Positions 1,363 to 56,215 of a DNA stretch of 64,000 bases are shown in pieces. The notes under the pieces are model-generated. The model ran no database searches and was not told the DNA's origin. It was given only the letters and a program-made list of their open reading frames with translations. Source of the stretch: an uncultured Selenomonadaceae bacterium (lineage in GTDB: Bacteria; Bacillota; Negativicutes; Selenomonadales; Selenomonadaceae); the NCBI GenBank assembly GCA_905233135.1, contig CAJOCQ010000014.1, forward strand, positions 4,643 to 68,642. The letters run 5' to 3'. Within the stretch, counting starts at the first letter, position 1, and every line of letters begins with the position of its first letter. Made by a program: the position numbers and the translations under genes.

Positions 1363-2070
1363 CTACTGTAAAATATTTTCTCTGATAAAAATTAAATTTT
1401 CGCCCCTAAATGCAAAAAACCAATGATATTTAGAAATTGCCTTAAAAAATTCGTAGGAGCAGCCGCGCTTCATTCTGTCATGCAATTCAATCATAATAAC
1501 TTTAACTTTAGATAACCAATCGTCAACATTAGCCGCGCCGAATACTTCTTTTTCTGCGCCTTCAATGTCAACTTTCAACAAGTCAATTTCATCAAAGCCC
1601 GAATCCTGCAAAATTTTTGAAATGGTTATGGTTTTCATAGCGGCGGGGTCATCTGCCGTTGTTTCAAAAGTCATATAGCCCCAGTTATCAAGCCCTACAT
1701 CTTCGACCTTAATAAAAGTTTCCTTGTCCCATAGCGCAGATTGTATGCCGTGAATATTTTCATACATACAAGTATTAAATTTCAAAAGTTGAAAATTATT
1801 TTTTTCCGGCTCAATAGAATAAATCTGCGCGTCAGAATATTTATTCGCAAAATAAACCGCACTGCAACCGATATTTCAGCCGCAATCTAAAATTAATTTC
1901 GGCTGAAAATTTTCAATTTGCAAAAAATATTCCTGAGATTTAAAAATAGAATTTATAATAGGCTCATCAGTTGTTCCGGGACGAAATGCAAGAGGAACTG
2001 CTTCACCTTTTATATTTTCTAAATTAACAAATTTAATCTTGGAAGATGTAATATTAAAATTTTCTGCCAT
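1363..2070 (-). pseudogene. FkbM-family SAM-dependent methyltransferase interrupted by one in-frame TGA
   Basis: ORFs 1876..2070 and 1363..1785 share a frame and are separated only by TGA at 1876..1878. The joined product reads ...KLILDCG*NIGCSAVYFANKY..., so the stop lies inside the DxGxNxG SAM-binding motif. GGAGA RBS before ATG 2070. Confidence 0.65.
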
Positions 2071-9969: not shown

Positions 9970-11877
9970 CTATTCCTCAAAAGGATTGTCGCCGAAAGGA
10001 TTTTCTTCAACCTTTGCAGATTTTTTCTTTGCAGGTTTTTCGACAGGTTTTTCTTCTGCGTCAAAAGAATCATCACCAAAGGGATTATCACCGAATGGAT
10101 TTTCTTCAACCTTTGCAGATTTTTTCTTTGCTGGTTTTTCAACGGGCTTTTCTTCAGCGTCAAAAGAATCATCGCCAAAAGGATTGTCGCCGAAAGGATT
10201 TTCTTCAACCTTTGCAGATTTTTTCTTTGCAGGTTTTTCTACAGGTTTTTCTACAGGTTTTTCTTCAGCGTCAAAAGAATCATCGCCAAAGGGATTATCA
10301 CCAAAGGGATTTTCTTCAGCCGTTGCAGATTTTTTCTTTGCAGGTTTTTCTACAGGTTTTTCTTCAGCGTCAAAAGAATCATCACCAAAAGAATCATCGC
10401 CAAAGGGATTATCATCAAAAGGATTATCGCCAAAAATATTATCTGTAACTTGAACTTCTTGCTTAGCCTTTTTCTTTTTGGGCTTTTCTTCTACAGGTTT
10501 TTCTTCAGCGTCAAAAGAATCATCGCCAAAGGGATTATCGCCGAATGGATTTTCTTCAAAAATATTGTCGCCGAAAACATTATCCATATTTTGCGAATCT
10601 TGAGCAACTGCGGTTGTAGTGTCAGAAGTTTCAGCGGCGGCTTTTTTCTTTTTCTTCTTCTTTTTCTTTTTGGCGGGGGTGCCGTCGGGATTAAGATTTT
10701 GCACCTGTTGCGGAACTTGTTCGGGCTTGGGCGGTTTAACTTTCTTTTGCTTTTTGGGCTTATCTGCAACGAGTACAACTTCCCTCAAATCGGGGTCAGG
10801 TACATCGTCTTTAGCTTGCGCCTTGCTTTTAATATCGATTTTCCAGCCTGTAATTCTTGCGGCAAGGCGGGCGTTTTGCCCTTCCTTACCAATCGCCAAA
10901 CTAAGTTGATTATTCGGCACTACAACGTGCGAAACTTTTTCGTATTCGCTGACGGCAACTTTCATAACCTTTGAAGGGCTTAAAGCGTTTGCAATAAAAA
11001 TTGCGGGATCCTCGTCCCATTTAACAACGTCAATTTTTTCGTCGCCGAGTTCTTTTGCAATAGCCTGCGCCCTAATGCCGTGTTCGCCTAAACACGCGCC
11101 GACGGGGTCAATATCGGGATTATTTGAAAAAACTGCAATTTTAGCGCGGTTGCCGGGTTCACGTGCAACGCCTTTAATTGTTATAATGCCTTCTTGAATT
11201 TCAGGAACTTCCAATTCAAAAAGTCTGCGCAAAAAGCCGGGATGAGTTCTTGAAAGATAAACTTGCGGACCTTTTCCGATTTTGCGAACTTCGGCAACGT
11301 AAGCGCGGACTCTGTCGCCGATTTTAAATCTGTCGCCGCGCATTTGTTCTATTGGAACAAGAACCGCTTCAGTTTTACCGATGTCAACAATAACGTTGCC
11401 GTCTTCAATTCGCGTAACAGTGCCCGTTACAATATCGTTATCTTTGTTTGTAAATTCGTCATAAACAACGCCGCGCTCGGCTTCACGAATTTTTTGCATA
11501 ACAAATTGTTTTGCCGCCTGCGCCGCAATTCTGCCGAAATTGTTGGGCGAAACTTCATAGCGAACAACGCTGCCAACTTCGTATTTTGAATCAAGGAGTT
11601 TAGCATCCTCAAGCGAAATTTCTCTGTTCCTGTTGGTAACTTCTTCGACAACGTCGCGCAGTTCGTAAACGTGAAAAATTCCGCTGTCTCTGTCCAAATC
11701 TACCACAACTTTTTTATCGGCGGTTGCAGTTTTTTTGCAGGCGAAAATTAACGCCGACTCAATCGCGTCAAATAGGGTATTTTGGTCAATTTCCTTTTCG
11801 GCGCACAATTCTTTCAACGCGGTTATCATTGAAAGTTCGCCGCCGCCTTTTTTTCTTCGTACAGCCAAGTTATCCAT
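9970..11877 (-). CDS. nusA: Transcription termination/antitermination factor NusA with long repetitive acidic/lysine-rich C-terminal tail
   Basis: Conserved N-terminal, S1 and KH regions (e.g. VTRIEDGNVIVDIGK, GACLGEHGIRAQAIAKELGDEKIDVV, LAIGKEGQNARLAARITGWKIDI). Start is ATG 11877 or 11829; neither has a good SD. The tail has a K10 run and six NPFGD-containing units: five ~33-aa repeats plus a terminal partial. Confidence 0.9.
   Translation of the reverse strand: MDNLAVRRKKGGGELSMITALKELCAEKEIDQNTLFDAIESALIFACKKTATADKKVVVDLDRDSGIFHVYELRDVVEEVTNRNREISLEDAKLLDSKYEVGSVVRYEVSPNNFGRIAAQAAKQFVMQKIREAERGVVYDEFTNKDNDIVTGTVTRIEDGNVIVDIGKTEAVLVPIEQMRGDRFKIGDRVRAYVAEVRKIGKGPQVYLSRTHPGFLRRLFELEVPEIQEGIITIKGVAREPGNRAKIAVFSNNPDIDPVGACLGEHGIRAQAIAKELGDEKIDVVKWDEDPAIFIANALSPSKVMKVAVSEYEKVSHVVVPNNQLSLAIGKEGQNARLAARITGWKIDIKSKAQAKDDVPDPDLREVVLVADKPKKQKKVKPPKPEQVPQQVQNLNPDGTPAKKKKKKKKKKAAAETSDTTTAVAQDSQNMDNVFGDNIFEENPFGDNPFGDDSFDAEEKPVEEKPKKKKAKQEVQVTDNIFGDNPFDDNPFGDDSFGDDSFDAEEKPVEKPAKKKSATAEENPFGDNPFGDDSFDAEEKPVEKPVEKPAKKKSAKVEENPFGDNPFGDDSFDAEEKPVEKPAKKKSAKVEENPFGDNPFGDDSFDAEEKPVEKPAKKKSAKVEENPFGDNPFEE
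9973..10590 (-). repeat. Tandem ~99-nt (33-aa) coding repeats inside the nusA 3' end
   Basis: Near-identical units encode EENPFGDNPFGDDSFDAEEKPVEKPAKKKSAKV (five units plus a partial terminal copy; one unit has an extra KPVE). They generate long spurious ORFs in other frames. Confidence 0.9.
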
Positions 11878-17879: not shown

Positions 17880-19046
17880 TTAATTAATTTGCAAGTCAAA
17901 AATACTATGCAACGAATTAAAATCCTGCCGCCAATTTTTCGGCGTCTCAAAAAGTGTCGCTCTTAAATCCGTTGCAAGTAAATCAAACGCAAGAGTTTTT
18001 TTGTACGGTTCCAAAATTTTTCCTGTCAAAATCTCTTTCGACGTTAAATGTTGTGCAACTTTTGTAACGATTGGCAGGCGGCTTTTTAAATTTTTTAAAA
18101 GTTTTCGCCCGCGTTCGTTGCAAGCTAAAATTCTTGCGTAGTCTTCGACGCTTGAAATTTTTTCCGCCGTTACGTTCAACAAAAAATGTAACAGCAACCT
18201 TTTAACGCGGCTTATTGTAAAACGCCGATTGACAACGCCGCTTACAAGTTCCGAAAAATTTTTTGCACTTCGCGCAGATTCTATCAGCTTAAATTCTATG
18301 CCTTCGCTCATACCGTAAATTTTTTTTAAGTTGTTTAAGTCTGACGTTAAAATTTTTGTGACAAGCGGGCGGAATAAAAATTTTTCTTCGGGCAATTCGG
18401 CGGCTTGTAAAATTTCTAAAACGTTTGAAGGTACAGAAATTTTTTCCCAACGCACAGGCTTTTCAAAAAGTGCGTGCCTGATTGAAGTTGCACTTGAAAT
18501 AACTTTGTCGCGCGGGATTAACAGCGGCGAAATATTTTTTGGCAATGCCCGCAAATACTCTATCGCCAAAATTGTATTCGGCAACTTTAAAAATTTTTCG
18601 TCAATCTGCGCGACGTTCGACAAAATTTTTGAAACTGCCTCCGCGTACGATTTGCCGTCCGACATTTCCAATTTTAATTTTTCGGCAAAATTTTTATCTG
18701 CGAAAGTTTCCGCCGCCAATTTTAATTTTTCCACGTCAAAAACTTCCGCGCCGAATGCCAATTTGTCAATTCCAATTTTTACTAAAAGATTTACGCCGCC
18801 GCGTGCGAAATCCTGCGCACTTCTTACTGCGTACAAAAAAGGCAATTCCAAAACTAAATCCACGCCGCCTAAAATTGCAAGCCGCGCCCGCGTCCATTTA
18901 TCCAAAATTGCAGGCGTGCCGCGTTGAGTAAAACTGCCGCTCATTACCGCCACAATTTCTTCGGCAGGAAAAATTTTTTTAATTTCCGAAATTTGGTAGG
19001 CGTGCCCCGCGTGAAAAGGATTGTATTCCACAATTATCCCAATCAT
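17880..19046 (-). CDS. tmcAL: tRNA(Met) cytidine acetate ligase (YlbM/TmcAL family nucleotidyltransferase)
   Basis: 388 aa. GIIVEYNPFHAGHAYQ, VMSGSFTQRGTPAILDKW and VDLVLELPFLYAV match the YlbM/TmcAL N-terminus. Confidence 0.8.
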   Translation of the reverse strand: MIGIIVEYNPFHAGHAYQISEIKKIFPAEEIVAVMSGSFTQRGTPAILDKWTRARLAILGGVDLVLELPFLYAVRSAQDFARGGVNLLVKIGIDKLAFGAEVFDVEKLKLAAETFADKNFAEKLKLEMSDGKSYAEAVSKILSNVAQIDEKFLKLPNTILAIEYLRALPKNISPLLIPRDKVISSATSIRHALFEKPVRWEKISVPSNVLEILQAAELPEEKFLFRPLVTKILTSDLNNLKKIYGMSEGIEFKLIESARSAKNFSELVSGVVNRRFTISRVKRLLLHFLLNVTAEKISSVEDYARILACNERGRKLLKNLKSRLPIVTKVAQHLTSKEILTGKILEPYKKTLAFDLLATDLRATLFETPKNWRQDFNSLHSIFDLQIN

Positions 19047-19894
19047 TCTTGCACGGCTTCCAAAGATTTTATTGCAACTTCAATCATTGAATCGTCGGGT
19101 TCGCGCGTAGTCAAATATTGCAACCATAAGCCCGGCATTATCGCCAATCTTACAAATGAATTTTTGGAACGCCCCGCGAATCTTATTATTTCGTAGGAAA
19201 TTCCAGCAACTACCGGCAACAAAATTATTCTCGATAAAATTCTCAACCATAAATCAGGCCAACCCAAAAACGCAAATACAAAAATGCTGACTATCATTAC
19301 GATTAACAAAAACGCCGTGCCGCAACGCGGGTGCAGGCGCGGAAATTTTTTTACATTTTCTACTGTCAACGGCAAATCCGCTTCGTAGCAAAAAATTGTT
19401 TTGTGCTCTGCGCCGTGATATTGGAAGACGCGCTGAATATCTTTCATTCTCGAAATTGCCGCTATGTACAAAATAAAAATCGCAAGCCGCACTATTCCTT
19501 CAGCCAAATTGAAATAAAACGGGTCTTCGGTTATCGAATGTAAAAATTTTGCGGCGAAAGTCGGAATTGCTATGAACAACACCGCCGCCAAGCCAAACGC
19601 AAATATCATTGTAAAAATTAATTCTTTGTCGGAAAGTTGCTCTTCTTCTTCGCCCGCCGCTTGCGCCGAAAATGACAGCGAACGCATTCCCAAAATTAAA
19701 CTTTCTATTAAAGATACAGAGCCGCGCAGAAACGGCAACTTTAAAATTGGGAATCTGTCAGCTATTGAATTTACGGGCTTAACTTGAACATTTATATTGC
19801 CGCTCGGCTCGCGTACTGCAGTTGCAACTTTGCCGAAACCGCGCATCATTACTCCTTCAATGACGGCTTGCCCGCCGACTATAGGTTTTTCCAT
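19043..19894 (-). CDS. DUF1385 (YqhQ-like) membrane protein
   Basis: 283 aa. VGGQAVIEGVMMRG start, YHGAEHK motif, several TM segments. Confidence 0.8.
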   Translation of the reverse strand: MEKPIVGGQAVIEGVMMRGFGKVATAVREPSGNINVQVKPVNSIADRFPILKLPFLRGSVSLIESLILGMRSLSFSAQAAGEEEEQLSDKELIFTMIFAFGLAAVLFIAIPTFAAKFLHSITEDPFYFNLAEGIVRLAIFILYIAAISRMKDIQRVFQYHGAEHKTIFCYEADLPLTVENVKKFPRLHPRCGTAFLLIVMIVSIFVFAFLGWPDLWLRILSRIILLPVVAGISYEIIRFAGRSKNSFVRLAIMPGLWLQYLTTREPDDSMIEVAIKSLEAVQE

Positions 19895-29394: not shown

Positions 29395-29856
29395 TTAAAA
29401 AAAGTTTACAGCCCCTAAATCCGTATTCCACATAATTAAAGCGTCTTCGCCGTTGTCAATGTAATATTTCGGACGCCGCCCGACACTTTTTAAGCCGAAA
29501 CTTTCATAAATTTTAATAGCAGCAACATTTGAAGGGCGTACTTCCAAAGTTACGGCATTTGCGCCGCGCTCCTTGCAAAGTTTCAAAAGTTCGCCAAAAA
29601 GTTTCTTGCCAATCCCGCGCCCGCGATATTCCGCCAAAACTGCAACGCTCATAACTTCAGCCTCATTGAATGAAAGCCACGCGCCCGCGTACGCAATAAT
29701 TTTTTTTTCGAGTTCGCCGACAATGTAAGCCGTGTTTTTGCGCTGTACAACCTCAAAAAAAGTATCACGTTTCCAAGGCAACGCAAAAGATTTTATTTCA
29801 ATTTCTGAAACCGTGTCGGCGTCGGCGGGCGTCATTTTCCTAAAAATAATTTCCAT
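29395..29856 (-). CDS. GNAT N-acetyltransferase, RimI-like (paralog d)
   Basis: 153 aa. IEIKSFALPW, VAVLAEYRGRGIGKKL (acetyl-CoA Q/RxxGxG/A motif), EVRPSNVAAIKIYESFGL. Confidence 0.8.
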   Translation of the reverse strand: MEIIFRKMTPADADTVSEIEIKSFALPWKRDTFFEVVQRKNTAYIVGELEKKIIAYAGAWLSFNEAEVMSVAVLAEYRGRGIGKKLFGELLKLCKERGANAVTLEVRPSNVAAIKIYESFGLKSVGRRPKYYIDNGEDALIMWNTDLGAVNFF

Positions 29857-30300
29857 TTAAATTTTCAGCCCCATAACAAAAGCATCTTCGCCGTTGGCGT
29901 AATAATTTTTTTCGCGCCCGATTATCATAAAGCCAAATTTTTCACAAAGGCGCATTGACGGCAAATTATCTGTACGCACTTCAGCAAAAATAAATTTTGC
30001 GCCGCGCTTTTTGGCGGTACGAATTAATTTAGCAAACATTTTTTGCGCAATTCCGCGCCTGCGAAATTTTTCGGTAACTGCAACCGTTGAAATGTCAGCT
30101 TCGCCTTCGTAAATTTCCAAGCCCGCGCAGGCAATAATTTTTTTCTCAAATTCTGCAACAATATATTTAGCGTGCGGATTTTTTGCCGCGTAAGCGAAAA
30201 ATTGGCGGCTCCAGGCATCAACGCCGAAATTTTCTTTATCAAGTTCGGCTACTGCGTCAACGTCGGCAAGCGTCATTTTCCTAAAAATTATTTCCGCCAT
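29857..30300 (-). CDS. GNAT N-acetyltransferase, RimI-like (paralog c)
   Basis: 147 aa. VAVTEKFRRRGIAQKM, EVRTDNLPSMRLCEKFGF. Abuts the neighbouring paralogs with no gap. Confidence 0.8.
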   Translation of the reverse strand: MAEIIFRKMTLADVDAVAELDKENFGVDAWSRQFFAYAAKNPHAKYIVAEFEKKIIACAGLEIYEGEADISTVAVTEKFRRRGIAQKMFAKLIRTAKKRGAKFIFAEVRTDNLPSMRLCEKFGFMIIGREKNYYANGEDAFVMGLKI

Positions 30301-30747
30301 TTAAATTTGTCGCTCCATTAAAAAGGCGTCCTCATTATCCTTTTTGTAATAATTTTTCAAGCGTTCGATAATTTTAAAGCCGCAATTTTCGTAAAGGTGA
30401 ACAGCTGCAAAATTTTTCGTGTTGACGTGCAACCTTGCCGTTGTAAAATTTTTTTGTTGCTTAATGAAATTTAATATGCCCGGCAAAATTATTTTACCGA
30501 GCCCGCGTCGCCGAAATTCAGGCGCAATGACAAATTTTAATATCGTCACAATATTTTCCGAAAAGCCGAGCAAAACGTACGCAATAAAATTTTCTTCAAC
30601 CTTCGCAACGAGCGGCAAAACGTTATTGTAATTGATAATTTCTTGAAAATCTTTCAGCGTCCACGCCGCCGAAAACGATTTATTTTCAATTTCTGAAACG
30701 GTTGCAAGGTCATTTTGCGTCATTCGGTAAAAATCAATTTTAGCCAT
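30301..30747 (-). CDS. GNAT N-acetyltransferase, RimI-like (paralog b)
   Basis: 148 aa. IENKSFSAAW, VIAPEFRRRGLGKII, HVNTKNFAAVHLYENCGF. Confidence 0.8.
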   Translation of the reverse strand: MAKIDFYRMTQNDLATVSEIENKSFSAAWTLKDFQEIINYNNVLPLVAKVEENFIAYVLLGFSENIVTILKFVIAPEFRRRGLGKIILPGILNFIKQQKNFTTARLHVNTKNFAAVHLYENCGFKIIERLKNYYKKDNEDAFLMERQI

Positions 30748-31199
30748 TAAATTTGCCTTTCCATTAAAAAAGCGTCTTCGTGAATCAGCGCGTAAAAATT
30801 TTTCAGGCGTTCAGCCAATTTCAATCCGCAACTTTTGTAAACGTGAATAGCCGCAATATTATTTGCGCGTACGTGCAACTTTACAATCTTGCCGCCGTTG
30901 TGTTTAATGACGCTTAAAATCATCCAAAAAAATTTTTTGCCAATCCCGCGCCCGCGAAATTCCGCCGCAATGGTAAAAGTCATAACCGTTGCAATTTCGC
31001 CCGAAAATTTCAGCATTACATAGCCCGCAATTTTTTTATCAACTTGCGCGATAAGCCCAAAATTTTCTTCGCTTTGCAGACACTTTAAATAACGGTTAAT
31101 CGACAGCGGGATTATATATGAATCAGTTTCAATTTTATGAACGGCGGGCAAATCTTTGGGCGTCATTTTACGCAAAATTATTTTTGGCGTTGTTCCCAA
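30747..31199 (-). CDS. GNAT N-acetyltransferase, RimI-like (paralog a)
   Basis: 150 aa. TIAAEFRGRGIGKKF, HVRANNIAAIHVYKSCGL. Overlaps the tsaB 3' end. Confidence 0.8.
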   Translation of the reverse strand: MGTTPKIILRKMTPKDLPAVHKIETDSYIIPLSINRYLKCLQSEENFGLIAQVDKKIAGYVMLKFSGEIATVMTFTIAAEFRGRGIGKKFFWMILSVIKHNGGKIVKLHVRANNIAAIHVYKSCGLKLAERLKNFYALIHEDAFLMERQI

Positions 31200-31849
31200 A
31201 GTTCTTCAGCCTCCGAGCGGCGAATATAAAGCGGCTCAATGTTCATAACGTTAGAAATTCCGCCCGCGTCAATTAAATTTTTGCCGAAAAGTGCAACGTT
31301 TACTGCGCGCGGCATTCTGCAATTTAGCGGCGCAATTTTTACATTTTGCGGCAAGTCGATTTTAATTTTGTGCAAAACATCACCGCACAAAAAAATTTCG
31401 GCGTCAATATTGCCCGCGCCTGCAACAATTTCATCAATGCTTTTAATTTCGAGTTTCGAGAGTGCGCGGCAATTTTTAAATTTTTGAAAGTAAGCGCGGT
31501 TTTTCTGCGCGTCAAGCATTGGAATAACAATAGCGTTGCTTGTCGGGAAGTGGTAAGAAATTGCCTGCAAAGTCGGCACGCCGATAATTTTTGTATTCCA
31601 CGCATAACATAAAGCCTTAGCGGTTGCAAGCCCGATTCTCAATCCCGTAAAAGAGCCGGGACCAATGCTGACTGCAACGGCGTCAACTTTTTCGACGTTG
31701 GCAATTTTTAAAGCTTGTTCAATTTGCGGCAACAAAGTTTCAGAGTGCGTTAATTTAGCTTCCTGCGAAATTTCGGCTAAAATTTTTTCTTCAGATATGA
31801 CGGCGACGCTTGCAACGCGCGTTGCCGCCTCAATTCCCAAAATTATCAA
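31178..31849 (-). CDS. tsaB: tRNA threonylcarbamoyladenosine biosynthesis protein TsaB
   Basis: 223 aa. ILGIEAATRVASVAV, VSIGPGSFTGLRIGLATAKAL. Confidence 0.85.
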   Translation of the reverse strand: MIILGIEAATRVASVAVISEEKILAEISQEAKLTHSETLLPQIEQALKIANVEKVDAVAVSIGPGSFTGLRIGLATAKALCYAWNTKIIGVPTLQAISYHFPTSNAIVIPMLDAQKNRAYFQKFKNCRALSKLEIKSIDEIVAGAGNIDAEIFLCGDVLHKIKIDLPQNVKIAPLNCRMPRAVNVALFGKNLIDAGGISNVMNIEPLYIRRSEAEELWEQRQK

Positions 31850-42660: not shown

Positions 42661-43849
42661 AATTTTTCAAAACTTCCTTTGCATCGTTTAACATTCTTTC
42701 ACGCAAGCCGTCAACTCCGGGTAAAATTTTCGCCCAAGGCTGAAATTTCCAAAGGCGCGGGTAAAATTGCAGCGGGTCTTCAACTGCTATTGCGCAAATA
42801 AAAAAATTTTGCCCTTCGTCGATAATTTTAAAATCAATTTCCGCGTTCAAAAATTCGATACGTTTATTGCGCTCGGCGGCGTCTTGAAAGGCGACGCGCA
42901 ATTTTATTTCACGCAATTTTTTCTTTGGCGGAGAAAAATTTTGCGCGGGCAAATTTAAAATTTCGGCGTCAACAATTTTATCTGCGCGAAATTTGAAAGT
43001 GTCCTTGCCGCGTACTGCCCAAATATATTGCCTGCAACAAAGAAAATCCGTTTCAATCGCCAAAGGCGTAACGGCAAGCGGCGGATGATTTTCGCGCTTG
43101 TACGAAATTTGCCGCTTGTTGTTAATCGCCTCCAGCGTCAAAAATAAAATATCTTCGTCAAGTATCTGTACAAAATTATTGTTTTTGAATTGAAAAAAAT
43201 TCGGCGTCGACGTTTGAAAAATTTCTTGGAGCGAATCGACGAAAAAATATCCAGCCGCCGAAATCAGCGAAAAATTTTTATAAAAATTTACAGCCGCGCT
43301 TAAAATTTTAATTTCATTGGGCGAAAGTTCGCCAAGCGGATTTTTGAAACGCCTATAAAAAAATTTCCCGTTTTCCAAATAACTTGTTAAGACGCCCGAA
43401 TTTTCCAACGCCTTGACGCGGCGGCGCAAAATTTGCGGCAAATCCTTTTCAAGTTTTTCGGGATTCATTTCAAAAATTTTTTCGCTTACAAGTTCAACAA
43501 TTTCCGAAAGTGACAGCGGCTTTTGCGCCCTTTCCAAAATTTGTAAAATCGTTATGTTATACAAAAAATATTCGGGCAAAACAGTTTTCAGCAAAAAGGA
43601 GCGGTATAAATAATTTTCCGAAGAATAGCCGCTGAAGGTTGTGTAGGAAAATTTTTCGTGGCGGTGCACTTGAATATTTTCAAACGATATAAAAAAGCGA
43701 AGTTGCCTTAAAAAATCGTCGTAAGTGCGCGGCGTAATTCCGTACTTTGAAAATTGCGTGCGGTGGTAGCAACCATACGACACCAAGCGCAAAAATTTTC
43801 TCAAATCCTTGTACGAACGGTTAAACTTGTTAAAAATCTTCGCTGACAT
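42644..43849 (-). CDS. wHTH + WYL-domain regulator candidate
   Basis: ATG 43849 with GGGGGGA SD. wHTH-like LSLSEIVELVSEKI...RRRVKALENSGVL. WYL-like RQISYKRENHPPLAVTPLAIETDFLCCRQYIWAVRGKDTFKFRADKIVDAEIL. Divergent from the cas10 operon. Confidence 0.55.
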   Translation of the reverse strand: MSAKIFNKFNRSYKDLRKFLRLVSYGCYHRTQFSKYGITPRTYDDFLRQLRFFISFENIQVHRHEKFSYTTFSGYSSENYLYRSFLLKTVLPEYFLYNITILQILERAQKPLSLSEIVELVSEKIFEMNPEKLEKDLPQILRRRVKALENSGVLTSYLENGKFFYRRFKNPLGELSPNEIKILSAAVNFYKNFSLISAAGYFFVDSLQEIFQTSTPNFFQFKNNNFVQILDEDILFLTLEAINNKRQISYKRENHPPLAVTPLAIETDFLCCRQYIWAVRGKDTFKFRADKIVDAEILNLPAQNFSPPKKKLREIKLRVAFQDAAERNKRIEFLNAEIDFKIIDEGQNFFICAIAVEDPLQFYPRLWKFQPWAKILPGVDGLRERMLNDAKEVLKNYAEPV

Positions 43850-44010
43850 AAAATCCCCCCGCAATTTTTTTGACAGATTATCATATTTAAAAATTTGACG
43901 CAATGAAAAATTTTGATTTGCAGGATTTTTGAAATGAAATAAATTTTCTGCGCCGCTATAATTCGCACATAAAGTTAATTAACCCCGCACCTTAAAGGAG
44001 GCAAAAAGCA

Positions 44011-44091
44011 ATGGGCAGTTTGTGGGATGTTGTTGTGGATTTAGTGATAGATGAAGTTATAGACGCAGCTTTAGATGAATTGTTTGATTAA
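44011..44091 (+). CDS. Mini-ORF p1, 26 aa acidic peptide MGSLWDVVVDLVIDEVIDAALDELFD
   Basis: AAAGGAGG SD 9 nt before the ATG. Both Ile codons are ATA. Confidence 0.45.
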   Translation: MGSLWDVVVDLVIDEVIDAALDELFD

Positions 44092-44121
44092 TTTTGTTGA
44101 CAGTCGAAAGGGGGTGAAAAA

Positions 44122-44160
44122 ATGATAGAACGTTTGCTTGAGATAATACTTCGCCGCTAA
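44122..44160 (+). CDS. Mini-ORF p2, 12 aa MIERLLEIILRR
   Basis: GAAAGGGGGTGA SD 6 nt before the ATG. Codons: ATG ATA GAA CGT TTG CTT GAG ATA ATA CTT CGC CGC TAA. Confidence 0.45.
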   Translation: MIERLLEIILRR

Positions 44161-44191
44161 TTTTTCTTGACAGTCGAAAGGGGGTGAAAAA

Positions 44192-44230
44192 ATGATAGAA
44201 CGTTTGCTTGAGATAATACTTCGCCGCTAA
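44192..44230 (+). CDS. Mini-ORF p3, identical copy of p2 (MIERLLEIILRR)
   Basis: Same SD and codons as p2. Confidence 0.45.
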   Translation: MIERLLEIILRR

Positions 44231-44261
44231 TCTTTGTTGACATTTGAAAGGGGGTGAAAAA

Positions 44262-44300
44262 ATGATAGGCTCAATACTTCGCATAATACTTCGCCTTTAA
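44262..44300 (+). CDS. Mini-ORF p4, 12 aa MIGSILRIILRL
   Basis: Same SD module. Codons: ATG ATA GGC TCA ATA CTT CGC ATA ATA CTT CGC CTT TAA. Confidence 0.45.
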   Translation: MIGSILRIILRL

Positions 44301-44332
44301 TATTTGTTGACAGCTGAAAGGAAGTGATTTTA

Positions 44333-44389
44333 ATGATGTTACCGTTCCCGTTGCCGTTGCCGTTCCCGTTCCCGTTCCCAAGTTTTTAA
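44333..44389 (+). CDS. Mini-ORF p5, 18 aa MMLPFPLPLPFPFPFPSF
   Basis: Variant SD GAAAGGAAGTGA. The body is a (CCGTTS)x6 hexanucleotide repeat. Confidence 0.4.
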   Translation: MMLPFPLPLPFPFPFPSF

Positions 44390-44436
44390 TTTTAGTTATG
44401 GTTGTTTGAGGAAAAATTTTAGGAGCTGATAAAAAA

Positions 44437-44475
44437 ATGGAATATGACAATAGAACTCGGCGAGCCGTTGCGTGA
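44437..44475 (+). CDS. Mini-ORF p6, 12 aa MEYDNRTRRAVA
   Basis: TAGGAG SD. Contains AGA ACT CGG CGA (three non-CGC Arg codons). Followed by a weak hairpin AAAGC-GCAGCG-GCTTT and a T7 run. Confidence 0.3.
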   Translation: MEYDNRTRRAVA

Positions 44476-44548
44476 TAAAGCGCAGCGGCTTTTTTTGCAG
44501 GAAAAATTTTTATATTGTTGAAATCAAAATTTAAAGGAGGGGATTTTT

Positions 44549-46246
44549 GTGGCAGAAACAAAAAAATTTAATGCATTATTGTTCGATACGCGCTCCATTC
44601 AACGTTACATTTATTCGGGGAATTTGTTGCGGACGAATATTGGCGCGTCGTACATTGTGGACAGGCTTTTTTTTGATGTTTTGGTTAAAAAGACGCTGAA
44701 GGAAATTTTACCGCACGTTAATTTTTCTTTGGCTAAAGACACTACATGGGATAATAAAAAAGATTCTGAAGCCGCTTGGGAAAATATGGAAGATTGTTGC
44801 GTGGCGTACATTGGCGGCGGAAATGCTTTAATTTTGTTTGATGCGGCAAAGGAAGATAAACGCCGCGAAGTTGTTAAAAATTTTTCAATGAAACTTTTGG
44901 CAACTCGTCCCGGTTTAAAAATTGGCGTGGCATTCGGAGAACTCAATATTGACGGCGATAAACTTAACCAATCTGACATTGACGCGCTTTACAGCGAATT
45001 GAAAAAAAATCAAAATACCGTTTTCCCCGCCGTGAATGTTCCTTACAGCGGCTTAACTTTGAGCTGCGAAATTAACGGCGAAGCGGCTAATTTCTGCGAT
45101 ACTCGCGGAAAGGTTAAACCTGTTGGCGAAATTAGATTTTATTCACAAGAAACCGCCGTTAAAGCTGAAATGTCTGACGCCGCAAATGACAGCTTGAGAA
45201 GCCGTTTCAACAAAATTTTTGAGTTGAAGAACTCTTCGGAGCTTATGGATAATTTTGAATTTCCAATGAAAGTTGATGAACTCGGGCAAAAAGACGGCGA
45301 AAATTATTTTGCAATAGTGCACGTTGACGGCAATAACATGGGCGTAAAATTTCGCACTTGTGAAACTCTTTTGGCGCGCCGCCAACTTTCCCGCGAAATT
45401 CGCAGAAAAACTGAAGGTGCGTTTGCAGATTTACTTTTAAAAATAATTGCCGCAAAAAAAGAAAATCTTTTTGCAGACGATTTAAAATTCGTCAATAAAA
45501 AACTTTTGCCGATACGCCCGCTGATTCTTGGCGGCGACGACGTAACTTTCATTTGTCCCGCAAATATGGCGATTCTTTTCACAAAAACTTTGATGGAATT
45601 TTTGAATAACGAAACTGATAAAGATTCGCCTGAACATTCCACGCAAAAATTTTCTCAAAAAATGGACTGCTGCGCGGGCGTTGCAATTTTGCCAACGGCT
45701 TACCCCTTCTTCAGAGGTTACGAATTGGCGGAGCAACTTTGCGATGAAGCTAAAAAAGTTATGCGCGCTGAAAAAAATTCCGAAGGTTCAAGTTGGCTGG
45801 ACTTTGCAATTTTGCACGGCGAACAAGCTCCGACGCTTGAACAAATTCGCAAAAGAGAATACAGCGGCGCACGCGGCAATTTGCATTTCGGACCTTATCA
45901 AGTTTGCAATAAAAATAATTCCCGTTACAATATCGAAAATTTAATTTCCTGTACCGAACAATTTTTAAAATCTAAAAGCGAAAATCCTTCGCCCGAAACA
46001 ATTTCGCACGGAAAAATTAAGGAGCTGCGCTTTGTTTTACAACGCGGCAAAGATGAAACTGCAAAGTTTTTGCAACAGTTGAAAAATCAAGGGCAAAATT
46101 TGCCGTTTGTTGCAGATTGGCAACATTGTATAACAAATGCATTGTGGAGCGAAGAAACAAAACCGCGCACGCCGTATATTGACGCAATAGAATTAATGGA
46201 TTTTTATCCTGCGGAGGTGGCTGAAAAATGGCAAAGTTTGACGTAG
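44549..46246 (+). CDS. cas10: Cas10 (type III large subunit), compact and lacking an HD domain, cyclase GGDD motif intact
   Basis: GTG start after AAAGGAGGGG. 565 aa. N-terminus runs straight into a palm-like segment FDTRSIQRYIYSGNLLRTNIGASYIV. LPIRPLILGGDDVTFICP carries GGDD. No H..HD motif in the first 100 aa. Confidence 0.75.
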   Translation: MAETKKFNALLFDTRSIQRYIYSGNLLRTNIGASYIVDRLFFDVLVKKTLKEILPHVNFSLAKDTTWDNKKDSEAAWENMEDCCVAYIGGGNALILFDAAKEDKRREVVKNFSMKLLATRPGLKIGVAFGELNIDGDKLNQSDIDALYSELKKNQNTVFPAVNVPYSGLTLSCEINGEAANFCDTRGKVKPVGEIRFYSQETAVKAEMSDAANDSLRSRFNKIFELKNSSELMDNFEFPMKVDELGQKDGENYFAIVHVDGNNMGVKFRTCETLLARRQLSREIRRKTEGAFADLLLKIIAAKKENLFADDLKFVNKKLLPIRPLILGGDDVTFICPANMAILFTKTLMEFLNNETDKDSPEHSTQKFSQKMDCCAGVAILPTAYPFFRGYELAEQLCDEAKKVMRAEKNSEGSSWLDFAILHGEQAPTLEQIRKREYSGARGNLHFGPYQVCNKNNSRYNIENLISCTEQFLKSKSENPSPETISHGKIKELRFVLQRGKDETAKFLQQLKNQGQNLPFVADWQHCITNALWSEETKPRTPYIDAIELMDFYPAEVAEKWQSLT

Positions 46247-54614: not shown

Positions 54615-56215
54615 CATTGGGGCGCGCTAAAACAGGTTGCGGTTTTGAAACATCGGTAGAGCTTTAATAGGTATAATGTGCAATAAATTCCCTCCCGCGC
54701 GTTTGTTCTTACCGCTTGCGGTTTTGAAACTTGAGGAAAGTGGATTATTGGATGAATTAAAAAAGAAACCCGCGCGTTTGTTCTTACCGCTTGCGGTTTT
54801 GAAACGCGTATGGTATTAATGTGGGATAAAAGTATTTATTATGCAACCCGCGCGTTTGTTCTTACCGCTTGCGGTTTTGAAACGCGCCACTACGAATCCA
54901 ACATTTGATAACAATATTAGCATTTCCCGCGCGTTTGTTCTTACCGCTTGCGGTTTTGAAACCGTAAACCTTTTTGTTATCTATTCTTGCTACAAAAGTA
55001 CCTTCACCCGCGCGTTTGTTCTTACCGCTTGCGGTTTTGAAACTTTACGATTAGGTTGTGGTTCTATAGGTTTAATTTCTTCAACCCGCGCGTTTGTTCT
55101 TACCGCTTGCGGTTTTGAAACTTTGTTAGAGTGGAGTACTACTTTGTTAGAGTGAACCCGCGCGTTTGTTCTTACCGCTTGCGGTTTTGAAACTCTTAAT
55201 AATATTTCTGATGCGTATTTGCAATTTTTTATTGCCCCGCGCGTTTGTTCTTACCGCTTGCGGTTTTGAAACATCACCGCCACAAATTGGGTACGGGAAT
55301 ATACTGCAGTGTTCCCGCACGTTTGTTCTTACCGCTTGCGGTTTTGAAACTAATTTGGTTTCCATCACGCTTGAGATCATCCAATTTTTCTTCCCGCGCG
55401 TTTGTTCTTACCGCTTGCGGTTTTGAAACCCGCGCAGATAGTTGTAGGACAAAATCTTGATGTTTTGCCCCCGCGCGTTTGTTCTTACCGCTTGCGGTTT
55501 TGAAACCTCGCAAAAATCCCTCCTCTTGCGCCACTTCCACCAGACGCCCGCGCGTTTGTTCTTACCGCTTGCGGTTTTGAAACTTAAGACATTCAGGGCA
55601 AACACCATATTTTTTATAATCGTCAACCCGCACGTTTGTTCTTACCGCTTGCGGTTTTGAAACGTAGCTTGAAAGTCTGCGTAAACTTCAGAAAAAACCT
55701 GCGCCCGCGCGTTTGTTCTTACCGCTTGCGGTTTTGAAACATTTTATTATTGTTTTAAATATTGTAATCATATTTAATCACCCCGCGCGTTTGTTCTTAC
55801 CGCTTGCGGTTTTGAAACAAGAAATGGGAATGTCCGCAGCAGTCTTCACCTCCTTCACACTGCCCGCGCGTTTGTTCTTACCGCTTGCGGTTTTGAAACG
55901 CATCGACGTGTTCGAAATCCACGTATGAAAGATACGCGCCCGCGCGTTTGTTCTTACCGCTTGCGGTTTTGAAACTACGTTAAGTGCATTATTCAGCTCG
56001 TCAAATTTCAATTGAACCCGCGCGTTTGTTCTTACCGCTTGCGGTTTTGAAACCTATCTTTAGTTTGGACGGCAGGTTCTTCGACGATTTTTACGCCCGC
56101 GCGTTTGTTCTTACCGCTTGCGGTTTTGAAACCTGCAGCCTCCAAATTTACTTGTTCCATGATGGATATACTCCATCCCCGCGCGTTTGTTCTTACCGCT
56201 TGCGGTTTTTGAATA
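54615..56215 (+). CRISPR. CRISPR array, 37-nt repeat CCCGCGCGTTTGTTCTTACCGCTTGCGGTTTTGAAAC, 19 spacers
   Basis: 19 canonical repeats start at 54694, 54769, 54847, 54926, 55007, 55085, 55157, 55236, 55314, 55393, 55470, 55547, 55627, 55704, 55782, 55863, 55939, 56017 and 56096. The repeats at 55314 and 55627 share a G6A variant. The terminal repeat at 56178 is degenerate (..GGTTTTTGAAT). A strongly degenerate repeat lies at 54615-54651. Spacers are 35-45 nt. The GAAAC 3' end and the downstream terminator support plus-strand transcription. Confidence 0.95.

Follow-up and report, generated by a model that had tools for sequence, protein, structure and literature searches.

Type III CRISPR loci carry protein accessory effectors driven by cyclic nucleotides. 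The CreTA modules of type I CRISPR-Cas systems include CreT, which acts as an RNA and contains AGA-AGA in Haloarcula hispanica and AUA-AUA in Halobacterium hubeiense (PMC8501985). Toxic minigenes have 2–8 codons and work by drop-off of peptidyl-tRNA at their early codons, and tRNA sequestration is weakest late in an ORF, as at codons 8–9 (PMC2490762). The promoters that depend on the WYL activators DriD and PafBC combine a regulator site with a set spacing to the −10 box, and have no −35 element (PMC13004042).

Here, a cassette of six mini-ORFs of 12–26 codons is described, which lies upstream of cas10 in a stretch of 64,000 nucleotides from a Selenomonadaceae bacterium (the window). According to the sequence, positions 43917–44498 form one putative transcription unit, an undescribed accessory module of the WYL / CARF-HEPN / type III-D locus. 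The literature was searched for a CRISPR-associated polycistronic micro-ORF cassette with a WYL-type promoter, and nothing comparable was found.

The cassette and its relatives

The features of the locus are listed in Table 1. The gap upstream of cas10 is 699 nt long, compared with 640 nt in the preliminary description, and the six tiny ORFs reported there were all recovered as described. An SD match was found ahead of each of them (6/6), 7–11 nt upstream of the AUG. The unit consists of an operator-like motif with a −10 box, the six SD-led mini-ORFs and a terminator that is overlapped by the last ORF and ends 50 nt before cas10. We infer that transcription starts near 43969. Tandem Repeats Finder detected 3.3 copies of a 70-nt unit at 44092–44321 with 87% matches, in agreement with the tandem units of about 70 nt noted before, and the first two units indeed encode an identical peptide. 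A GTTCCC x7 repeat was also reported by the same program.

Table 1. Features of the cassette and of the surrounding locus (positions in the window)
Feature	Position	Strand	Remarks
CARF-HEPN protein (Csx1/Csm6-like) with C-terminal Csx20 domain, 702 aa	37952..40060	-	PADLOC CARF2--CARF_HEPN 5e-128, Csx20 8e-35; NCBIfam Csx20
Second CARF-HEPN protein (Csx1/Csm6-like), 490 aa	40026..41498	-	PADLOC CARF2--CARF_HEPN 2e-137
HTH-WYL-WCX transcription regulator, 314 aa	41716..42660	-	PADLOC WYL 2.9e-7
Larger WYL-like regulator, 401 aa	42644..43849	-	Divergent from cassette; PADLOC WYL 5e-4, faint winged-helix match
Operator-like motif TTTGCAGGATTTTTGAAATG	43917..43936	+	Heads every cassette in related loci
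−10 box TATAAT	43957..43962	+	Promoter scan; kept in L124; fixed distance from motif in all cassettes
SD AAAGGAGG and p1	43994..44091 (p1 44011-44091)	+	Acidic 26-aa peptide, net charge −8
70-nt unit 1: SD GAAAGGGGGTGA and peptide MIERLLEIILRR	44092..44161 (ORF 44122-44160)	+	
70-nt unit 2: peptide MIERLLEIILRR again	44162..44231 (ORF 44192-44230)	+	
70-nt unit 3: peptide MIGSILRIILRL	44232..44301 (ORF 44262-44300)	+	Class B amphipathic 12-mer
Unit 4: SD GAAAGGAAGTGA and peptide MMLPFPLPLPFPFPFPSF	44302..44389 (ORF 44333-44389)	+	Class C, Phe/Pro repeat
SD AGGAG and p6, peptide MEYDNRTRRAVA	44419..44475 (ORF 44437-44475)	+	Class D; last four codons are the 5' arm of the terminator
Intrinsic terminator	44462..44498	+	12-bp stem, 6-nt loop, T7 run; folding z-score −3.1
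Conserved spacer TTTTTGCAGGAAAAA...TTGTTGAAATCAAAATTTAAAGGAGG into cas10	44492..44548	+	Alignment of window with L124
cas10, 565 aa	44549..46246	+	GGDD motif present; first gene of type III-D effector operon, to ~52340
CRISPR array, 20 repeats of CCCGCGCGTTTGTTCTTACCGCTTGCGGTTTTGAAAC	54694..56214	+	

Six SD-led ORFs were observed in the region 43850–44548, against a mean of 0.88 and a maximum of 5 in 1000 dinucleotide shuffles, none of which gave six. Any other 700-nt stretch on both strands of the 64 kb holds at most two. The units are preceded by extended, near-perfect SD-like stretches, and exact matches to the anti-SD complement reach 8 nt in the window cassette and 12 nt in its relatives. 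The RNA is unusually unstructured, with a fold weaker than that of 99 of 100 shuffles.

The preliminary description had proposed a check on whether related loci keep such cassettes. About 25 loci of rumen Selenomonadaceae have the same architecture, and their DNA is mostly unalignable. The cassette is real and tied to a type III-D locus, as had been claimed; Csx10, Csx19 and a TIGR03986 RAMP confirm the type. Each transcript has five to eight ORFs of 10–41 codons, in which several peptide classes recur: hydrophobic 34–41-mers, amphipathic 11–15-mers, Phe/Pro repeats and acidic peptides, together with a short hydrophilic ORF that extends into the terminator. The copy number of the units shifts quickly between strains, and units 1 and 2 are a lineage-specific expansion absent from the related locus L124. 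Class C was found in L013, L015, L018, L022, L071, L089 and L124, and its unit is the sole ORF body detectable by blastn in more distant loci. The terminator is the best-conserved part of the family at the nucleotide level, with compensatory changes in 4 of 10 pairs, and in every cassette a class D ORF abuts or overlaps this common hairpin. Standard gene callers miss the cassette, and the only annotated class is that of the 34–41-aa peptides (18 clusters among 5.8 billion proteins). A phage origin was considered and rejected: class A has no relative in IMG/VR, and nine matches to the operator pattern in that database have no mini-ORFs downstream.

The cassettes sit beside CARF-HEPN genes and usually, not always, upstream of type III-D cas10; homologues of the 490-aa CARF-HEPN protein adjoin them in related loci. 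The WYL pair lies beside the cassette wherever flanks are available, including L127/L128, where cas10 is not nearby. A homologue of the 401-aa protein is the invariable neighbour of the cassette in L010, L013, L022, L089, L105, L107, L111, L124 and L127–129.

Regulators and promoter

The upstream genes had been called a WYL operon. For the 314-aa protein this is borne out by structure, and for the 401-aa protein the assignment is weaker (PADLOC E = 5e-4). Homologues of the 314-aa protein carry PF25583 and are named 'WYL domain-containing protein' at NCBI. Its AlphaFold2 model has a pLDDT of 81, and its top 26 Foldseek matches in the PDB are all PafBC, DriD, CapW or BrxR; the best match is PafBC (E = 8.5e-10), followed by DriD, CapW and BrxR. 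Searches of both WYL proteins against PDB sequences, with single sequences and with profiles, gave nothing.

The family consensus of the operator is TTCRCAGGAwwwTTGAnATG, which is followed by exactly 20 nt and then TAnnnT, and it is present in one to five tandem copies. The motif with its fixed distance to the −10 box occurs in every cassette and nowhere else in the related loci, only at cassette heads. No −35 consensus is present at 17 nt in the cassette promoter. By analogy with the DriD- and PafBC-dependent promoters, whose layout is alike, the control element looks like a WYL-activator promoter and not like a crRNA target. The repeat and all 20 spacers were compared with the masked window by blastn-short, and the matches within 43800–44600 are of at most 11 nt, at chance level; a crRNA-like partner or self-targeting was therefore set aside, since only chance matches were obtained. 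Rfam gave nothing for the whole window at gathering thresholds, and sub-threshold noise for the cassette and L013 at permissive E-values.

The TTGACA that had been included in the shared module of the units is present in the window units, but it is not kept outside the nearest relatives. Possible internal promoters built on this hexamer would have a −10 box that overlaps the start codon.

To our knowledge, the ligands and regulons of CRISPR-associated WYL pairs are largely uncharted. The cassette offers a concrete candidate target promoter for such a pair.

Peptides and codon usage

The density of SD-led ORFs, the frame-specific codon bias and comparisons between relatives show that the six mini-ORFs are genuinely coding, and the comparisons also show that the peptides are under purifying selection at the amino-acid level. 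Five synonymous and no non-synonymous changes separate L010 from L014 in class A, three and none separate L010 from L013 in class B, and three and none separate unit 3 of the window from L124. Synonymous excess and in-frame indels are seen in classes A, B, E and F, and the length differences between related ORFs are whole codons. The class D ORF shows no synonymous excess in these comparisons, and thus the class D peptide may be irrelevant.

The peptides have GRAVY values of 0.3–3.0 and helical hydrophobic moments of 0.72–0.76. Together with the amino-acid-level selection, these moments fit the small amphipathic peptides that were offered earlier as an alternative. Peptides of 10–13 residues are too short for spanning the membrane. 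A Pfam scan of the peptide classes matched no family. RiPP precursors were set aside: a maturase gene is absent, and 12 aa are too short for a leader and a core.

All 12 Ile codons in p1–p4 are ATA, as originally counted. The supposed rarity of AUA needs qualification, as AUA is moderately under-used, with 13.6% of Ile codons (ATC 10.6%) and 10.9 per 1000 codons, and is a minor codon and not a rare one. In 60 unique mini-ORFs of the family, the in-frame Ile codons ATA:ATT:ATC are 51:9:3, whereas the two other frames of those mini-ORFs are dominated by ATT (10:26:6 and 6:28:7). ATA thus makes up 81% of the Ile codons in the mini-ORFs, against 14% in neighbouring genes. Ile-Ile pairs are written ATA-ATA in seven of eight cases at loci other than L017, and in 2 of 97 cases in the window genes.

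The p1 homologues MSSLWDLVIDLVIDEVLDELFD (L124) and MDDLLDVVIDVVIDEVIDEVLDELFS (L127) are separated by in-frame indels, and every Ile is ATA. In the unit 3 orthologues MLGSILRIILRL (L124) and MLGSILRIILRR (L127), 3–4 synonymous and 0–1 non-synonymous changes are found at non-Ile codons, while ATA at positions 5, 8 and 9 is unchanged; codon 2 is ATA in the window and Leu in both orthologues. The nearest relatives retain the ATA-ATA pair at codons 8–9, which most of the remaining class B homologues lack.

A composition artefact as the source of the ATA bias is ruled out because of the out-of-frame and inter-ORF controls. The data also do not support ATA as an optimal codon: the PFOR gene, which is probably highly expressed, avoids it (6 of 83 Ile codons), and across the window genes ATA use is uncorrelated with the use of GGT, ACC and TTC. 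The mini-ORFs write other amino acids as GGT, ACC, TTC and CGT, and therefore AUA stands out. The AUA preference is genuine, frame-specific and family-wide, and is retained while neighbouring codons change synonymously. A purely peptide-based function does not account for this strict preference.

The explanation proposed here, to which we assign a probability close to one half, is an operon under WYL control that encodes hydrophobic or amphipathic micro-peptides and relies on tRNA-Ile2 for their translation. The WYL pair would bind the operator motif and switch the cassette on, in the manner of DriD and PafBC at −35-less promoters; this link is drawn because of the co-occurrence and the analogy. 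The trigger would likely be a nucleic acid that signals infection or damage, upon which the RNA would be heavily translated into hydrophobic and amphipathic micro-peptides, which may be small effectors, for example membrane or growth-arrest factors, following the logic that leads from DriD to DidA. With its AUA codons, the output would depend on the minor tRNA-Ile2 and would draw on it. If the peptides are effectors, they would give type III immunity a new output arm. Should the AUA dependence prove functional, the tRNA logic of CreT would reach bacteria, type III systems and transcription-factor control, and codon usage would be linked to anti-phage defence.

The codon data can also be read as CreT-like action without membership of CreTA, which we regard as unlikely. 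The AUA codons would sequester or report tRNA-Ile(CAU, lysidine) and tie up ribosomes on the strong SDs, with WYL regulators switching the unit on in place of a crRNA-like CreA holding it off, with the result that growth would stop or that phage genes rich in AUA would be selectively starved. The frame-specific selection of AUA, the excess of ATA-ATA pairs, the class B positions kept amid synonymous change, the preferred codons of the other amino acids and the avoidance of ATA in PFOR all favour it. So do the CreT precedent with AUA-AUA, the very strong SDs, the unstructured RNA, and the tandem amplification of units and promoters. Against it, the peptides are under purifying selection, unlike CreT, and AUA is not rare. 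Many cassettes have only one or two AUA codons, L015 uses mostly ATT and L017 uses ATC, and the mini-ORFs contain less Ile than ordinary genes do. Across the family the AUA pairs lie late, at codons 7–13, where sequestration by drop-off is weak. The units also lack a following stem-loop: none was found after units 1–4, whose folding z-scores of 0.2 to 1.2 are no better than those of shuffles, and the one hairpin that follows a mini-ORF is the terminator behind p6. Three spacer cores were searched against viral contigs for phage codon usage, without an exact match.

In its full form, which is likewise doubtful, the cassette would be a multi-copy translation trap set off by a WYL-sensed infection signal. 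A flood of unstructured RNA, with very strong SDs and with AUA as its only isoleucine codon, would draw down or gauge tRNA-Ile2 and ribosomes, possibly aided by the hydrophobic peptides, and would arrest growth or starve AUA-rich phage genes while the type III-D system and Csx1 act. If true, this would take the CreT-like principle beyond type I systems for the first time and would be its first case in bacteria with type III; no earlier element of the kind would have been governed by a protein regulator in place of a crRNA mimic.

Alternative explanations and comparison with known systems

In the window lineage, the WYL-controlled operon of micro-peptides probably doubles as a translated leader of cas10, since no conserved promoter lies between the terminator and cas10 there. 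No conserved −10 box was found in this interval in the window or L124, and no promoter was called in L124. By occupying p6, a ribosome would mask the hairpin's 5' arm, so that transcription could continue into cas10.

The stronger statement is that the cassette is mainly a leader or attenuator of the cas10 operon of the pyrBI type, in which ribosomes on the mini-ORFs, and chiefly on the last one, decide on terminator formation and the peptides are by-products. This is somewhat less probable still than the CreT-like action. The end of the last ORF falls within or at the terminator stem in every cassette, the hairpin shows covariation, and in most loci cas10 comes directly after the cassette; in the window and L124, the T-run is only 50 nt away from cas10, with no conserved −10 box in between. 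The run AGA-ACU-CGG-CGA reported for p6 is present, but only the rare Arg codons CGG-CGA are kept in relatives, against the terminator stem, and their conservation immediately before and in the stem (window, L124 and L127) also speaks for a leader. However, in most subclades a good promoter for cas10 follows the terminator (TTGAAA or TTGCAA, 17 nt, CATAAT). The module of ORF and terminator is also found at the end of cassettes with a convergent gene after them or without a nearby cas10 ('cassette 2', L071, L017 and L127/L128), and those with a convergent gene downstream cannot be cas10 leaders. The flanking A-tract and T-tract are consistent with a bidirectional terminator, and no antiterminator appears in minimum-free-energy or centroid folds of the RNA, whose structure is weaker than that of shuffles. 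Simple leader ORFs would not be expected to show the amino-acid-level selection seen on classes A, B, E and F. The attenuator suggested in the preliminary description is partly supported for the window lineage, with its terminator overlap and the missing −10 box before cas10, whereas the module also occurs without a downstream operon.

It is very improbable that the mini-ORFs encode small hydrophobic toxins of the type I toxin-antitoxin kind, held by antisense RNAs from promoters within the units, where ATAATA reads as a TATTAT −10 box on the minus strand. The peptides are hydrophobic, the size and charge pattern of class A are reminiscent of small membrane toxins, and two window units have TCAACA, 16 nt and TATTAT on the minus strand. 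However, these promoter-like sites were not found in the homologous cassettes L022 and L089, the window peptides are 12–26 aa with a strongly acidic p1, and the ATA preference is frame-specific and holds for single Ile codons, neither of which a −10 box needs. A non-coding region of tandemly repeated promoters or operators, or of duplication remnants, in which the ORFs are fortuitous, can practically be dismissed, for although each window unit scores as TTGACA, 18 nt, AATGAT and units 1 and 2 are a recent duplication, TTGACA is not kept beyond the nearest relatives, and frame-specific codons, synonymous excess, in-frame indels and conserved SDs, starts and stops persist across unalignable DNA.

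Like CreT, the cassette lies inside a CRISPR-cas locus, its mini-ORFs begin with AUG behind strong translation-initiation signals, and its use of the minor Ile codon AUA is under selection, also in the consecutive form AUA-AUA. Membership of CreTA does not hold. There is no creA-like partner with repeat-like and spacer-like parts and no downstream stem-loop, AUA is only a minor codon, and the AUA pair lies late in the ORF. The ORFs have 10–41 codons against about 6 in CreT, five to eight of them share a transcript, and their peptides are selected and conserved. The context is a type III-D system with WYL regulators, and the control element is operator-like. The cassette is not a CreT toxin in the strict sense. 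With toxic minigenes such as lambda bar (AUG-AUA-stop), it shares a strong SD, very short ORFs and AUA, and AUG-AUA starts three of the window units; its ORFs of 10–41 codons and its conserved peptides set it apart.

Like the pyrBI leader and the pheA, thr and trp leaders, the cassette has a short ORF with a good ribosome-binding site that runs into an intrinsic terminator upstream of an operon. Its peptides are compositionally biased, and the Phe/Pro class recalls the pheA leader. It differs from these attenuators in having no antiterminator, in its several independent ORFs with amino-acid conservation, and in its occurrence where there is nothing to read into.

As in the systems of the WYL activators DriD (Caulobacter, with didA) and PafBC (mycobacteria) (PMC13004042, PMC4211646), the adjacent regulator folds like PafBC and DriD, a conserved site lies at a fixed distance from a −10 box with no −35, and the products are small and hydrophobic. 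Two WYL genes stand in tandem, as for PafB and PafC. In contrast to those systems, the candidate targets consist of polycistronic arrays whose ORFs are much shorter and show no similarity to DidA, and the context is a CRISPR locus and not DNA repair. The repressors BrxR and CapW, both among the structural matches, are likewise WYL regulators divergent from a defence operon. They repress defence genes directly, whereas in the present locus the regulator and cas10 are separated by a distinct mini-ORF unit.

The cassette in the window

The cassette is real and conserved. It is a previously undescribed feature, an operon of translated micro-peptides that is linked to WYL genes and encodes isoleucine almost only by AUA. 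It lies within the type III-D / Csx1 loci of uncultured Selenomonadaceae from the rumen. The gap from the end of the divergent gene (43849) to cas10 (44549) is 699 nt, and all six mini-ORFs of the preliminary description were found there exactly as given. AUG ORFs of 10–60 codons with a Shine–Dalgarno (SD) match of at least 5 nt were counted, using 1000 dinucleotide shuffles as the control. The cassette contains six such ORFs, compared with a mean of 0.88 and a maximum of 5 in the shuffles, and it is the sole hotspot of this kind on both strands of the 64 kb. The inferred transcript folds more weakly than 99 of 100 shuffles (z = +2.1), and the terminator by itself gives a folding z of -3.1. 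The RNA looks suited to translation rather than to folding.

Features of the cassette, its neighbourhood and related loci
Feature	Position	Method or score	Remarks
Operator-like motif	43917-43936		TTTGCAGGATTTTTGAAATG
-10 box	43957-43962		TATAAT
70-nt tandem unit	44092-44321	Tandem Repeats Finder	3.3 copies
GTTCCC repeat	within fifth ORF	Tandem Repeats Finder	x7
Strong intrinsic terminator	44462-44498		12-bp stem, T7 run
Type III-D effector operon	downstream of cassette		Cas10 with GGDD, Csx10-like, Csx7-like, Csx19, TIGR03986 RAMP
Cas6, Cas1, CRISPR array	after effector operon		20 repeats
Two CARF-HEPN Csx1/Csm6-like proteins	minus strand	PADLOC, E about 1e-128 to 1e-137	
Second cassette type	L013 1-400; L010 1-440; L022 2200-2480; L073 1-400; L071 1-345; L018 1-150		also in L105, L107, L111
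Repeats GTTTCAAAACCGYAAGCGGTA...	L012 2900-3560; L009 about 1520-1650		orientation opposite to cas10

Codon differences among close relatives are mostly synonymous. In class A, the hydrophobic 34–41-mers, 5 synonymous and 0 non-synonymous differences were detected in one comparison, and 4 and 2 in a second. The corresponding values are 3 versus 0 and 2 versus 0 in class B (amphipathic 11–15-mers), 3 versus 0 between unit 3 of the window and the related locus L124, and 6 versus 4 in class E. Mini-ORF lengths differ between relatives by whole codons. The exception is class D, the short ORF at the terminator, in which the synonymous excess is absent between close relatives. The terminator and its A/T tracts constrain the nucleotide sequence here, and this region shows the best DNA-level conservation in the cassette family, with compensatory pairs. 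Judged by sequence comparison, the mini-ORFs are coding. In the related locus L089 (minus strand), the class D ORF near 2586–2630 (oriented coordinates) contains an A10 run that shifts its stop codons out of frame in this assembly; with one A fewer the end would be ...KKKSLAVA. The run may reflect a sequencing error or be a site of slippage.

Other repeats occur in the window. The gene at 9970–11877 (-) contains long tandem repeats of 99–141 nt, and thus encodes a repetitive protein. At 29395–31849 (-), repeats lie about 441–447 nt apart along a row of small ORFs (~150–220 aa), which suggests about four tandem paralogous genes.

Neighbouring genes and related cassettes

The Cas10 homologues place the host as a rumen Selenomonadaceae, Quinella-like bacterium. 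The four minus-strand genes upstream of the cassette encode two CARF-HEPN proteins, one with a Csx20 tail, and two WYL-type proteins (the WYL pair, 314 and 401 aa). Homologues of the 314-aa protein have the WCX domain and are named WYL proteins at NCBI, and the top 26 PDB matches of its AlphaFold2 model (pLDDT 81) are all PafBC, DriD, CapW and BrxR. The 401-aa protein is WYL-like by PADLOC profile only (E = 5e-4). PDB sequence searches with both proteins gave no match.

In the CRISPR leader, a degenerate partial repeat ACAGGTTGCGGTTTTGAAAC is located at 54632–54651, 42 nt 5' of the first full repeat. This may represent an old repeat or else a regulatory element that resembles one, and the intervening 42 nt do not match the cassette. 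One array spacer (55122–55156) is an internal direct repeat, TTTGTTAGAGTG ... TTTGTTAGAGTGAA.

When the cassette was compared with 68 related cas10 loci by blastn, matches were limited to the terminator and the Phe/Pro repeat. A search for SD-led small ORFs showed that the architecture recurs in many of the related loci, in the order operator-like motif and -10 box, class A peptide (MFFLxP...AGA...FSRRD), one to three class B peptides (e.g. MGELLLWYLLLRD, MLEDLLWWLIRR, MLLDLLRYVLVR; the 12-mers of the window belong here), Phe/Pro-rich class C peptide, short hydrophilic class D ORF ending at or inside the family's terminator, and cas10. Class A, the sole class long enough for gene finders, forms 18 clusters among 5.8 billion proteins, and all four clusters with retrieved context lie in cassette-bearing loci. 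A second cassette type has the peptides MPWFVAGFVVAGSMILASDR and MGFMPDFEGSLSVGMRRVFF and a class D ORF that starts with TTG, with the promoter motif and terminator of the first type; it diverges from the 401-aa WYL homologue and converges with a Csx1-like gene. As it occurs in loci of the first type, such loci carry two cassettes each. A metagenome scan by promoter pattern gave 30 matches, including six further cassettes; the other 24, which have no downstream mini-ORFs, appear to have matched by chance.

Homologues of the 314-aa protein led to the nearest relatives of the window cassette. L124 and L125 have the gene order of the window (WYL genes, cassette, cas10), with one class B unit versus three. 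In L127–L129 an expanded cassette accompanies the WYL pair and a Csx1-like gene, and no cas10 is nearby; thus, the WYL pair is the invariable partner of the cassette, and cas10 is a usual, non-obligatory neighbour. No cassette was detected in L003–L005 and L020, whose cas10 is closely related but which lack the WYL pair, or in any of the more distant genera. The preliminary description had asked whether related III-D loci keep such cassettes; many of them do. The number of mini-ORF units and of promoter units varies between near-identical contigs (L080 versus L081, 2 versus 3; L077 versus L078 versus L079, 4 versus 2; L127 versus L128, 3 versus 2), and is 3 in the window versus 1 in L124. An assembly gap within the L127 cassette suggests collapsed repeats. 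Some cassette-free relatives have a short array or solitary repeats between cas1/cas2 and cas10.

Isoleucine codons of the mini-ORFs

The consecutive AUA codons had been described as rare. In the window, ATA accounts for 13.6% of the Ile codons (10.9 per 1000), and is a minor codon, not a rare one; the PFOR gene, probably highly expressed, has 6 of 83. Since class B homologues have Leu, Trp or Val where the window has Ile, the AUA idea at first seemed dismissed, and a wider count reversed this. Among unique mini-ORFs of 12 cassette regions, ATA makes up 33 of 45 Ile codons, versus 14% in long genes of these loci. Ile-Ile pairs are ATA-ATA in 7 of 8 cases (loci other than L017), versus 2 of 97 in window genes. 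In the window's subclade all Ile codons are ATA with one exception, and class B ATA at positions 5, 8 and 9 is kept while 3–4 adjacent codons change synonymously.

After L124 and L127 were added (60 unique ORFs), the in-frame Ile codons are 51 ATA, 9 ATT and 3 ATC. The ATA:ATT:ATC ratios are 10:26:6 and 6:28:7 in the other two frames, and 75:108:31 in the inter-ORF spacers. These frame-specific counts rule out a composition artefact and independently confirm the reading frames, so that the AUA preference itself stands. The codon usage of the mini-ORFs departs from that of neighbouring genes for many amino acids besides Ile, as in GGT (53% versus 14%), ACC (65% versus 15%), TTC (63% versus 38%), CCG (73% versus 42%) and CGT (36% versus 16%), and AUA stands out against these shifts. 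Several cassettes have just one or two AUA codons, and L015 uses mainly ATT and L017 ATC. The DUF1385 gene at 19043–19894 (-) has ATA at 15 of 31 Ile codons, by far the top share among the long genes of the window.

Regulation and comparison with known systems

Each cassette starts with TTC(A/G)CAGGAwwwTTGAnATG, followed after exactly 20 nt by the -10 box, which is often TG-extended. The motif is present in 1–5 tandem copies per cassette and absent elsewhere in the loci, and no -35 consensus was found in the cassettes at 17 nt from the -10 box. DriD-dependent promoters are likewise described as lacking a recognisable -35 box and as carrying a clear binding site whose distance from -10 is fixed (PMC13004042), and didA, the classic DriD target, encodes a small membrane protein (PMC4211646). 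As a PafBC/DriD-like protein is encoded next door, the most economical inference is that the WYL pair controls the cassette through this candidate operator; the peptides presumably act as effectors.

Just 5' of the operator, AAATTTTGATTT is perfectly complementary to AAATCAAAATTT just 5' of the cas10 Shine–Dalgarno (43908–43919, 44492–44532). Both operator halves (TTTGCAGGA ... TTGAAAT) recur, spaced further apart, in the terminator-to-cas10 spacer. L124 keeps this repetition as well as the complementarity.

A leader-peptide attenuator of the cas operon had been named as an alternative. Most subclades have a good promoter (TTGAAA or TTGCAA, 17 nt, CATAAT) in the interval from the terminator to cas10. 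The 50 nt from the T-run to cas10 are well conserved between the window and L124. This conservation does not include TATATT, the sole -10-like hexamer of the window spacer, and the L124 spacer yielded no promoter call. In these two loci, cas10 may depend on read-through. The last four codons of p6 form the 5' arm of the terminator. A ribosome on p6, perhaps delayed by CGG-CGA, a conserved pair of rare codons, would cover this arm, and the arrangement could act as a pyrBI-like attenuator of cas10. However, the same ORF-plus-terminator also ends cassettes that face convergent genes, so that attenuation is not the general role of the module.

The main proposal was a CreT-like AUA-AUA module. Partly CreT-like action, through AUA and tRNA-Ile2, survives as a less probable rival reading and is weakened by the late position of the AUA codons in the ORFs (PMC2490762) and by the AUA-poor members of the family. 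With respect to the defining CreTA features (PMC8501985), CreT has a downstream stem-loop, acts as RNA and is partnered by creA, whereas the mini-ORFs have no such stem-loop, their peptide sequences are selected and no creA partner was matched, and therefore the cassette is not a CreTA member. The strong initiation signals are shared with CreT. Consecutive minor codons do occur in the mini-ORFs, but at late codon positions and not in all cassettes.
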